A stretch of 64,000 bases of DNA. Origin: Psychroserpens sp. Lineage in GTDB: Bacteria; Bacteroidota; Bacteroidia; Flavobacteriales; Flavobacteriaceae. The stretch spans positions 3,562-67,561 of the forward strand of contig JAWUWM010000050.1 in NCBI GenBank assembly GCA_034111845.1. Reading direction: 5' to 3'. A program made the position numbers and the translations under genes. Shown in pieces: positions 34,381 to 37,310 of the stretch. The notes beneath the pieces are model-generated. The model ran no database searches. It saw only the letters and a list, made by a program, of their open reading frames with translations, and was not told where the DNA came from. Each line of letters starts with the position of its first letter. The first letter of the stretch is position 1.

Positions 34381-35433
34381 TTACGAAATCTCTTGTAATT
34401 TCTGGAGATCTAAAACTTTAATATTTCTTCCTTCCATTTCAATAAGACCCTGTTTTTTAAAATCAGATATGGTTCTAATTAATGTTTCAGTAGCTATACC
34501 AGCAACACTAGCCAGATCATTTCGTGAAATTCTGATAGGATCGTTTGGATTTGAATTTATTTTTTCAGCAAATCTTAAAATAGTAGAAGCGGTTTTCTTT
34601 TGTACCGAGCTGTATGCCATTTGTAGGAGTTGATCTTTTACGCCGGTGAGATCATCAGTTAATAATTGAATAACCTCTAAAGTCACTTTATGATTATTAT
34701 TTAGTATCTCTTTAAGTTCTGTTTTAGAAACACCAACCATTTCTAAATCTTTAATAGCTGCAGCTGTTTCACGATAAGGGATGTTTTGTATAAAGGACGT
34801 GTAGCCAAAAAGGTCATCTTCCTTATGTAGTGCTGTAGTAAGTTCCTTGCCTTTTTCATCAAATTTATAGCACTTTACAGCACCTTTGGTTATTAAATAG
34901 ATGAAATTAGAATTATGCCCTTCTTTATAAATAGTATCATTCTTTTTGTAGTTGAAAATGGTGCCATTATCATCAAAGAAGTTTTTTAAATCATTTAAAG
35001 TTCTTAGTTGTTCTTCGTCATTAGAAGTAGAATTAGTAAAGGTTTCCCGCTCATCTTTTAAGATAGAAGCTTTGGCAATTCTACTTTCAATCGCACTAAT
35101 GATTTCATCTTCGCTAAAAGGCTTAGTAATGTAATCATCTGCGCCTAGATCCATACCTTTTCTTATATCTCGACGTTCCGTTTTTGCAGACAAAAATATA
35201 AAAGGAATAAACTTTGTTTCTTTATGTTTAGATAAGCCTTCAAGTACACCATAGCCATCAATAATAGGCATCATAATATCACAAACCACAATATCAGGTT
35301 TATGTTTTGTAGCTATTTCAAGTCCTATTTGCCCATTGCTAGCTGTTAGTACTTCATAGTTAGAAAGCTCTAAGAGCTCAGCAGTATTTTCTCTCAATAC
35401 TGTATCATCTTCAATCAAAAGTACTTTTGTCAT
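34381..35433 (-). CDS. Response regulator: receiver + cNMP-like domain + CRP/FNR HTH
   Basis: LIEDD, CDIMMP (D52), FLSAK, YITKPF; then IYKEG..GAVK..FGY and HTH SRNDLASVAGIATETLIRTISDF. Confidence 0.92.
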   Translation of the reverse strand: MTKVLLIEDDTVLRENTAELLELSNYEVLTASNGQIGLEIATKHKPDIVVCDIMMPIIDGYGVLEGLSKHKETKFIPFIFLSAKTERRDIRKGMDLGADDYITKPFSEDEIISAIESRIAKASILKDERETFTNSTSNDEEQLRTLNDLKNFFDDNGTIFNYKKNDTIYKEGHNSNFIYLITKGAVKCYKFDEKGKELTTALHKEDDLFGYTSFIQNIPYRETAAAIKDLEMVGVSKTELKEILNNNHKVTLEVIQLLTDDLTGVKDQLLQMAYSSVQKKTASTILRFAEKINSNPNDPIRISRNDLASVAGIATETLIRTISDFKKQGLIEMEGRNIKVLDLQKLQEIS

Positions 35434-37310
35434 AATTGCGCTTTGTTTGGAAGTTCTATCGTAAAGATTGATCCTTCATGTTCTTTACTTTCAAAAGTAA
35501 TAGTTCCATTTAAATGTCCTAAGTGATCTTTCACGATATTTAAACCGATACCTGTGCCTTGCAAAAGCAATGCGTTTTCTGCTCTAAAATAGCGGTTAAA
35601 TATATTTTTTTGATCTTTTTTTGGAATCCCAATTCCGTTATCTTTGATTTTGAAGATGGTGTTGCCTTCATTTTGCGAAATACTAACATCTATAATTGTG
35701 TTTTCTGAAGAATATTTAATAGCATTATAGATTAAATTTGATAACACCAATTCTATAATTTTTTCATCTTGGTATAATGAAACTTCGTCAATATTATCTG
35801 GATAATTAATTTGTTGGCCATCTTTTAATAACATATTAGCGTTATAAATAACTTCATTTAAAACCTTACTCAATTTAAATGTTGTAAAATTATAATTGAT
35901 TTTACCTTTCTCTAATTTTTCTACAGAAAGGAAATCATTCAAAATTTTATTGAGATATTGAACTTTATCTGTGATTGTTTTTATATGTTTCTCACGTTTC
36001 TCTTGTTGCTCGGTTAATTTGTATTTACTCAATAATATTGTTGAGGTTAAAATACCACTAAGCGGTGTTTTGAATTCATGAGACACCATAGATAGGAACT
36101 TGGTTTTTAGGTCGTTGAGTTCTTTTTCTGCGGTTAAAGCGGTTTGTAACTCTTTAGTTCTTAGAGCGACGGTGTTTTCTAATTTTTCTGTATAGTTTTT
36201 TTGTTCTGTGATGTCTAAAATAATAGCAAAGTATACTCTTTTATCCATTAATTGAGACATTTGCAAATGTACTTCTACAGGATATGTCGAACCATCTTTT
36301 CTTTGATGTACCGTTTCAAATTCAATTTTATTAACGAGTTTGTTAGTTAATGGGGCAATTATTTCTTTAAATTGTTGTTCGTTAAGATTAGGTTTAATGT
36401 CATCGGGTCTCATAGTTTTAAGCTCATCTAAACTGTAGCCTATGTTTTTTTGAGCTCCATAATTTGCATTTATAAAATGCAATGTATCTTCTTCAAATAC
36501 AAATATTTCATTTAAAGACTCGTCAAACATTGCAGATAAATGATTGCTTTCTTGATCAGCTCTTTTACGTGCGGTGATGTCATTTTGAATCCCTATAAAA
36601 TGGGTCACATTTCCTTTTTTATCTTTTATGGGTGTAACGTACAAATCGTTCCAAAATAAACGTCCATCCTTGTTATAGTTCCGAATTATTGCATGACAAC
36701 TTTCTCCTTTTTTAATTGCATTACGAAGTATTACGGTGCCTTCCTGATCTTTATCATCTGCTTGTAAAAACCTACAATTTTTATGCAATATTTCTTCGGA
36801 AGAGTAACCTGTTAATTTTTCGAATGCAGAGTTAAAATAAATAATAGGGTTGTCTTCTAGAGAAGCATCTGTAATAATGATACCATTGCTTGCTGATTCT
36901 AATGCTTGGCTTTTAAGCATTAGATTTTTTTCAATTTCTTTTCTCTCTGTAATATCTATAACTAAAGCCATTACATAGTTTTTACCATAAATGGTAAAAG
37001 GATTTAGACTCGCTTCTATGGGGAAAACATTACCATCCTTTTTAGTGCCAAAAATATCACGACCATGTCCCATTTGACGTTGTTCGTTATTTTTGATAAA
37101 GCCTTTAAAATGGTCACCATGTTTTGCATGATAATTTTTAGGGATTAGAATGTTAAGAGGCTGTTTGAGTAGTTCTTTACCATTATATCCAAACATCATC
37201 GTTGCAGCTTCATTAGCTTCAACAATATTTTGATGCTCATCAACTACAACAACACCTTCTGAAATAGAGTTTAAAAGGATATTGAAAATATCTTGATCTT
37301 GTTTAAACAT
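35430..37310 (-). CDS. Cytoplasmic sensor histidine kinase: FixL-like PAS + LOV + PAS + HisKA + HATPase
   Basis: PAS1 NILIP..HAKH..GHGR..KKDG..FP; PAS2 [23 protein letters not shown] (H411); NAIKYS, DNGIGI, GTGIGL; no TM segments. Confidence 0.93.
   Translation of the reverse strand: [626 protein letters not shown]

Follow-up and report, generated by a model that had tools for sequence, protein, structure and literature searches.

A predicted haem-PAS and LOV sensor histidine kinase with a REC-Crp-type partner regulator in the marine flavobacterium Psychroserpens

We analysed a 64,000-nucleotide (nt) stretch of the genome of a Psychroserpens sp. (GenBank assembly GCA_034111845.1, contig JAWUWM010000050.1, positions 3,562 to 67,561; hereafter the window) that carries a gene for a predicted sensor histidine kinase of 626 amino acids (aa) at 35430..37310 on the minus strand. 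The gene product combines a haem-type PAS domain (PAS1), a LOV domain (PAS2), a third PAS domain (PAS3), a dimerisation and histidine phosphotransfer (DHp) domain and a catalytic ATP-binding (CA) domain, an arrangement delimited from the translated open reading frame (ORF), Pfam and an AlphaFold2 (AF2) model. We propose that it is a two-input haem and LOV kinase, presumably dimeric, that acts through a neighbouring regulator with a receiver (REC) domain and a Crp/FNR-type DNA-binding domain, and we predict that the two signals are integrated in the one protein; we put the probability of this reading at roughly 0.6. The proposal draws on the homology of PAS1 to haem-PAS domains with the His and Arg in register, the complete LOV residue set and the intact kinase motifs; on the PAS folds strung along continuous helices in the AF2 model, the Foldseek matches and the rigid spacing of the modules; on the adjacency of the regulator at every locus compared, the enrichment of a candidate binding box and the presence of that box before ccoI; and on the precedent of the engineered kinase YHF (PMC6798134, PMC4469895), the lit habitat and a rhodopsin gene.

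In the proposed mechanism, PAS1 would bind haem b through H64 and report a diatomic ligand, which would most likely be O2 held by R84, while the LOV domain would bind flavin mononucleotide (FMN) and form an adduct at C179 under blue light. Both conformational signals would pass down one coiled-coil spine to shift the kinase/phosphatase balance at H411, and the phosphorylated regulator would bind TGAT-N4-ATCA boxes that control a low-oxygen and dormancy regulon. The targets would include tandem universal stress protein (USP) genes, a ribosome hibernation factor, HSP20 and the ccoI-ccoS-ccoNO cbb3 oxidase operon. Either input may be of either sign, and the two may be joined by AND, OR or cooperative logic. 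A first-pass annotation of the window had already suggested one kinase for O2 and blue light; its two domain assignments gain support from the sequence comparisons below, and the integration of the two inputs is still a matter of prediction.

Domain architecture of the kinase

Pfam searches on the 626-aa ORF placed PAS domains at residues 13-125, 134-247 and ~258-375, HisKA at 402-469 and HATPase_c at 515-622. The highest Kyte-Doolittle mean over 19-residue windows across the whole protein was only 0.95; the kinase therefore appears to be soluble and cytoplasmic, with no transmembrane segment. These results agree with the first-pass annotation in the extent and strand of the ORF and in the third PAS domain and HisKA/HATPase core without transmembrane segments, and the residues it cited (H64, R84, C179, N211, N221 and Q242) all lie where it had placed them.

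The catalytic half of the protein has the intact motifs of a HisKA-class sensor histidine kinase (the H-box His and the N, G1, F and G2 boxes), to which class we assign it on sequence. The DHp domain (Pfam HisKA; aa 385-469, 35904..36158, minus strand) has an H-box that is invariant in 50 homologues, and the codon of the phospho-acceptor His411 (36078-36080) follows the DIT motif of PAS3 by exactly 45 residues. The CA domain (aa 515-622, 35445..35768, minus strand), with its N, G1, F and G2 boxes, matches Pfam HATPase_c at 2.6e-24. Residues H411, N525/N529, D557-G559-G561, F571 and G585-G587-G589 are invariant in the same 50 homologues. No NCBIfam equivalog model reached its cut-off for either the kinase or the partner regulator. 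Histidine kinases function as homodimers.

The AF2 model of the kinase (mean predicted local distance difference test score 80.6) has three confident PAS folds with helices between them; helices 121-139 and 246-264 join the PAS domains and a long helix, 368-429, enters the DHp domain. Foldseek searches with the full-length model returned among the best matches the Brucella LOV-PAS histidine kinase, the LOV-FixL chimeras SB2F1 and YF1, NifL (second in rank) and DosP. The TM-scores were low (0.2-0.37) although the families were correct, because the arrangement of domains in a monomer model is arbitrary. PAS3 (aa 265-368, 36207..36518, minus strand) has no recognisable cofactor signature and found only weak, generic PAS matches in the PDB (3bwl at 9e-5). 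It is kept in the ~500-aa relatives that lack a LOV domain, and is probably a transducer or dimerisation module.

The haem-type PAS domain and the LOV domain

PAS1 (aa 8-121, 36948..37289, minus strand) was assigned by searches of PDB sequences. When residues 1-128 were compared with all PDB sequences by phmmer, the best 13 matches were all haem domains of FixL or DosP (BjFixL 7e-14, RmFixL 3e-13, DosP 6e-13), and the alignments were free of gaps. In these alignments H64 (codon 37119-37121), which lies within a helix predicted at 58-73 in the AF2 model, falls on the proximal His of both families (BjFixL H200, DosP H77), and R84 (codon 37059-37061) falls on the distal Arg (BjFixL R220, DosP R97). 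Two further pocket residues, R78 and M80, belong to the FG loop, where R78 stands in for the propionate-binding H214 of FixL. A profile built from 30 homologues of PAS1 and run against PDB entries ranked 12 haem-PAS entries first (DosP 2e-21, RmFixL 1e-17, BjFixL 1e-14), with YtvA as the first known non-haem PAS at 6e-11; one unannotated multi-sensor kinase entry, 10jx, fell inside the haem-PAS range at 1.7e-13.

A homologue search with residues 1-260 (E<=1e-10) returned ~850 protein clusters, and the conservation counts given here over 120 refer to the best 120 of these. Nearly all of the 120 are 623-660 aa long (two are truncated and one has 835 aa), share 58-66% identity with the kinase and bear generic names only. 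They come from marine Flavobacteriaceae (Winogradskyella, Lacinutrix, Psychroserpens, Gillisia, Algibacter, Formosa, Gelidibacter, Cellulophaga, Tamlana and others). Among these close homologues H64 is present in 118/120, R78 in 115/120, M80 in 119/120 and R84 in 43/120. Homology and the iron-ligand His together support membership of PAS1 in the FixL/DosP haem-PAS clade, with haem binding predicted. The earlier suggestion of a FixL-like haem-PAS with H64 as proximal and R84 as distal residue thus holds as a domain assignment.

The second PAS domain (aa 140-246, 36573..36893, minus strand) was recognised as a LOV domain by the match of residues 128-255 to solved short LOV proteins in the PDB (phmmer, 5e-37) and by a domain-level match to the NCBIfam model YtvA_fam at 1.5e-51. 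The adduct-forming Cys, C179 (codon 36774-36776), sits in the motif NCRFLQ (36762-36779), and the protein also has N178, R180, Q183, R196, N211, N221 and Q242. Six of these, R180, Q183, R196, N211, N221 and Q242, correspond to the flavin and signalling residues of YtvA (R63, Q66, R79, N94, N104 and Q123). N178, Q183, N211 and N221 are each found in 120/120 close homologues, C179 and R180 in 119/120, Q242 in 110/120 and R196 in 109/120. With both the adduct and the flavin residue sets complete, the data support a canonical LOV domain, as first annotated from the NCRFLQ motif, the two Asn and the Gln, and an FMN photocycle is predicted. The His two residues before NCRFLQ, where the first reading had expected Gly, is ordinary variation and no special trait: of the 120 homologues, 70 have Asn at position 176, 29 have Gly and 17 have His.

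Family architectures and module geometry

We surveyed 300 Flavobacteriaceae genera, with one genome for each, and found 27 with the haem plus LOV kinase, ~20 with a ~500-aa form and ~40 with a form of 379-436 aa. The ~500-aa form is the haem plus LOV kinase minus exactly the LOV unit, and in the shortest form the haem-PAS is joined straight to the kinase. From the surveyed genomes we retrieved 60 homologous loci, and we compared 21 LOV-bearing genus representatives with 40 LOV-less forms.

Every PAS domain of the kinase ends in a DIT-x-x-K motif that enters a helix. Wherever they were detected in the 21 LOV-bearing proteins, the three DIT motifs lie 292, 167 and 45 residues before the position of His411, with one GAF-insertion variant that differs. 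The ~500-aa forms have DIT-to-His distances of 167 and 45 and are thus shorter by exactly 125 residues, and in the short direct haem-PAS forms the distance is 45, 73 or 80, that is, 45 plus zero, four or five heptads. These distances indicate that the LOV unit is a 125-residue DIT-to-DIT cassette whose register to the kinase is preserved, and a preserved register is a requirement of a coiled-coil transmission line. An 809-aa ORF (L024, genome G055) is a haem plus LOV kinase with ~180 more residues between PAS3 and the DHp domain; its counterpart among the protein clusters, P0035, has GAF domain matches.

Partner regulator and putative regulon

The partner gene (34381..35433, minus strand) shares a 4-nt overlap with the kinase gene and encodes, by Pfam, a REC domain, a cyclic nucleotide monophosphate (cNMP)-binding-like domain (cNMP_binding) and a Crp/FNR-type helix-turn-helix (HTH_Crp_2). 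The REC domain has D52, S82 and K104, and the C-terminal half is nearest to the FixK, CRP and FNR models of NCBIfam. Its recognition helix has Glu and Arg in the E-x3-R spacing of FNR. At 61/61 loci, drawn from 58 genomes, a REC-cNMP-Crp gene lies 3' of the kinase on the same strand, and the gap between the two ranges from -29 to +109 nt.

The window has 24 copies of the sequence TGAT-N4-ATCA where 2.46 would be expected. Genome-wide there are 183 such boxes in 3.3 Mb, or 0.55 per 10 kb, against 3.75 per 10 kb in the window, which is ~7 times denser. For half of the window boxes (12/24) a -7-like element of the Bacteroidota type lies at a distance of exactly 23 bp. Boxes with a TAnnTTTG-like element (at least five of the six fixed bases) exactly 23 bp off on one side start at 22429, 25144, 29238, 31927, 32454, 33029, 37409, 38742, 43562, 54973, 56791 (both sides), 59891 and 63970. 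Genes with a window box in front of them include six of the tandem-USP type and those for a ribosome hibernation factor and HSP20; boxes were also found upstream of the kinase at 34/61 other loci. At the locus studied here a box (37409..37420, no strand assigned) lies between the kinase operon and a divergent TerB-like/DUF302/thioredoxin operon.

The same arrangement was found elsewhere in the genome, before genes for a cbb3 oxidase. On contig C110 a perfect box, TGATAAATATCA (26458-26469), is followed 23 bp on by GACCTTTG and stands 56 nt upstream of a gene for a 790-aa CcoI/FixI-like ATPase, the first of a ccoI-ccoS-ccoNO operon. After the ATPase gene come ccoS, a fused ccoNO (733 aa, at locus L090) and ccoP-, ccoG- and ccoH-like genes. 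Because a perfect box with its 23-bp partner precedes ccoI, the cbb3 oxidase operon looks like part of the same regulon as the window boxes. The first-pass annotation had the kinase gate a regulon without saying which; this is plausible, and the constant pairing with a regulator gene and the excess of boxes give it a candidate form.

Divergent from the cco operon, at ~25900-26400 of the same contig (minus strand), is a frame of the Crp/FNR family, broken by five or more stop codons, in which the recognition helix is still legible as E-S-A-I-R. This frame is probably a pseudogene, although it may be an error of the metagenome-assembled genome; in this genome the one-component FNR-like regulator that commonly neighbours cco may have decayed.

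Downstream of the two-component genes, positions 21525-34295 of the window form what appears to be a stress or dormancy island. It contains six tandem-USP genes of ~280 aa each, an S30AE hibernation factor (32096-32398), HSP20 (24625-25074), a beta-CASP RNase (25604-26977) and an ATP-cone/Mrr-like protein (26991-27830), a gene content that resembles the mycobacterial DosR regulon. A 100% complete genome of the same genus (G066) had no match to residues 1-255 of the kinase at E<=1e-40; the presence of the kinase, and perhaps of the island, therefore varies within the genus.

Habitat

Ice metagenomes under five study codes, all of one year and possibly of a single campaign, contain the stretch, as does one seawater study. 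No RNA dataset with the stretch was present among the sequencing runs searched, which has no bearing on expression. The genome also carries, on another contig (C58:20685-21335, locus L089), a microbial rhodopsin gene (Pfam Bac_rhodopsin, 7e-41). From its occurrence in ice and seawater and its rhodopsin gene, we conclude that the organism, as its sequences indicate, meets light.

Evolution of the sensor sites and alternative readings

A tree built from the PAS1 and kinase columns that all forms share mixes the three architectures, and well-supported branches force at least four changes between them. Two proteins cluster with the window protein, one that bears a LOV domain and one, 78% identical to the window protein, that lacks it. 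A tree of the LOV domains fits a single origin, and its groups repeat those of the PAS1 and kinase tree; the nearest outgroup LOV domains are those of long multi-PAS flavobacterial kinases. One ancient gain of the LOV unit followed by repeated in-register losses appears to fit these trees best, and recombination between alleles may be an alternative. The long kinases (ORFs of 1225 aa in L088, genome G052; 1076 aa in L082, G161; and 1346 aa in L087, G285) have an N-terminal FixL-like PAS and a canonical LOV farther along, and the haem His aligns in L088 and L082.

Several observations weigh against the two-input reading, and the first concern the haem pocket. Only 16/21 LOV-bearing representatives keep the proximal His (Leu in three, Tyr in two), and only 4/21 LOV-bearing genera keep the distal Arg. 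The LOV-less forms have H64 in 40/40, R84 in 34/40 and the complete H64-R78-M80-R84 signature in 33/40, against a complete signature in 3/21 of the LOV-bearing genus representatives. Because the pocket is relaxed in LOV-bearing proteins and mostly complete in LOV-less ones, haem sensing may be dispensable once a LOV domain is present. The protein could then be a sensor of light only, in which the LOV domain works and PAS1 is an inherited haem-PAS shell with a structural or dimerisation role, its haem absent or non-gating. The loss of the proximal His in five of 21 LOV-bearing genera, the scarcity of R84 among them compared with LOV-less forms and the near invariance of the LOV residues would all fit such a sensor. 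The window protein, however, is one of the three with a complete pocket, and its H-R-M-H-R signature is the consensus of the LOV-less forms and would be ancestral; H64 is also nearly universal among its 120 close homologues. Furthermore, the association of a LOV domain with a lost distal Arg could not be kept as a firm result, since after phylogenetic correction only four independent pairs remained (median p 0.25) and it amounts to a trend. We regard a light-only sensor as unlikely.

Decay of the sensor sites appears to be reciprocal among orthologues. The proximal His has been replaced by Leu or Tyr beside a perfect LOV domain in L020, L025, L027, L031 and L034, and in L028 the LOV Cys has become Ile, together with R180K and N211S, with the haem residues kept.

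Another reading keeps the haem ligand and replaces light with cellular redox state, such that the LOV flavin would report the redox state of the cytoplasm and the two domains would sense two facets of respiration. Flavin redox sensing has been proposed for Caulobacter LovK and for the flavin PAS domains of the NifL type. The second rank of NifL in the Foldseek search and the respiratory and stress-related content of the putative regulon are consistent with it. However, redox-only flavin PAS domains need neither the adduct Cys nor the signalling Gln, which are found in 119/120 and 110/120 of the close homologues, and the lit habitats and the rhodopsin also argue for light, which makes a redox role for the flavin distinctly unlikely.

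The distal pocket of PAS1 is more polar than that of FixL (BjFixL I215, L236 and I238 correspond to Q79, A100 and L102, and R206 to G70), PAS1 appears at least as near to DosP as to FixL (profile 2e-21 against 1e-17 and 1e-14), and H82 lies at the position of the DosP axial ligand Met95, so that a six-coordinate, redox-type haem is possible. A PAS1 haem that senses NO, CO or the redox state of its iron rather than O2, with light as the second input, would suit these features and the near-invariant M80 (119/120), but it is the least probable of the readings considered, since the O2-gripping Arg of FixL and DosP is present here and in 34/40 LOV-less relatives and the cbb3 oxidase operon, classically a target of low-O2 control, has a box in front of it.

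Other reservations about the two-input reading concern the regulon and the nature of the data. The -7-like element TAATTTTA, 23 bp from the box at 37409, points to the divergent operon on the plus strand and not to the kinase, and autoregulation of the kinase operon through this box is accordingly unsupported at the window locus. An intact 241-aa Crp-family protein on contig C97 likewise has an E-x3-R helix, and the boxes could be read by another Crp-family protein such as this one. Haem binding, FMN binding, the photocycle and the kinase response are all predictions from sequence.

We continue to favour the two-input kinase. A bolder version of it would be a natural logic device that joins O2 and blue light on a single coiled-coil spine and so times the entry of a sea-ice or seawater flavobacterium into a low-oxygen, dormancy state. 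In this version sensor replacement would be under way in the family, the LOV cassette having been gained once and then repeatedly lost in register, with a tendency of the haem pocket to decay in the proteins that keep it. This version we hold tentatively, as a possibility somewhat more doubtful than not.

Relation to known systems

FixL (BjFixL and RmFixL, of the FixL-FixJ-FixK cascade) shares with the window protein the haem-PAS clade, with His and Arg 20 residues apart, the coupling of PAS to a HisKA kinase by a helical linker, and an FNR/FixK-type box and cbb3 oxidase operon at the end of the pathway. The window protein differs in having a LOV domain and a further PAS between the haem domain and the kinase and a more polar distal pocket, and its host is a marine bacteroidotan, not a diazotroph. 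In the rhizobial cascade, FixJ has a REC domain and a LuxR-type HTH and FixK is a separate protein; the partner here is a single chain of REC, cNMP_binding and HTH_Crp_2 and lacks the LuxR-type HTH of FixJ. The pair would thus work like the FixL-FixJ-FixK cascade without being a member of it. DosP of Escherichia coli (EcDOS) offers in its PAS-A the best profile match, with His and Arg in register, but its output is GGDEF/EAL with no kinase and no flavin domain, and its axial Met95 is a His (position 82) here.

The LOV-bearing form of the haem-PAS kinase and REC-Crp module is what is new, and the nearest precedent is an engineered protein, YHF, reportedly made by Möglich, Ayers and Moffat in 2010. 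YHF joins the LOV domain of YtvA, the haem-PAS of BjFixL and the FixL kinase, and responds to blue light and O2 with positive cooperativity (PMC6798134, PMC4469895). It has in common with the window protein the tandem of LOV and haem-PAS, the coiled-coil linkers and the single histidine kinase. YHF, however, is man-made and has the order LOV, haem-PAS, kinase, whereas the order here is haem-PAS, LOV, PAS3, kinase, with a regulator of the REC-Crp type of its own.

The LOV histidine kinase of Brucella abortus (6ph4, 6pps) and other bacterial LOV kinases have the order LOV-PAS-DHp-CA on a helical spine, which corresponds to residues 130-626 here, but the Brucella protein has no upstream haem-PAS, belongs to another kinase class and sends its output to a general-stress phosphorelay, not to a Crp-type regulator. 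AppA of Rhodobacter is a natural protein with a BLUF blue-light flavin sensor and a SCHIC haem sensor of oxygen or redox state (PMC4844311). Its folds are unrelated, since neither BLUF nor SCHIC is a PAS domain, and it is an antirepressor, not a kinase. The kinase of the RgzAB 'zorbing' preprint was considered as a precedent and set aside as irrelevant, as it is a GAF hybrid kinase. A full-text search found no paper on a natural haem-PAS plus LOV kinase or on the flavobacterial module; the Glantz 2016 survey of LOV proteins and the Möglich 2010 paper on YHF may mention one.

Significance

How signals are combined by tandem sensor domains in one kinase is an open question, for which this kinase family is natural material. 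The family offers proteins with both sensors, exact LOV-minus relatives and relatives in which a single site has decayed, with fixed linkers, a cognate regulator and a DNA box, and such a series of architectures with fixed geometry makes signal integration directly testable. If the bolder version of the two-input reading is true, the window protein and its 78%-identical LOV-less relative would be a ready-made pair for finding out how tandem PAS signals add up. In ecological terms the family would link dormancy and respiration genes of abundant marine heterotrophs to light and oxygen, two factors that vary together in sea ice, on particles and in biofilms.

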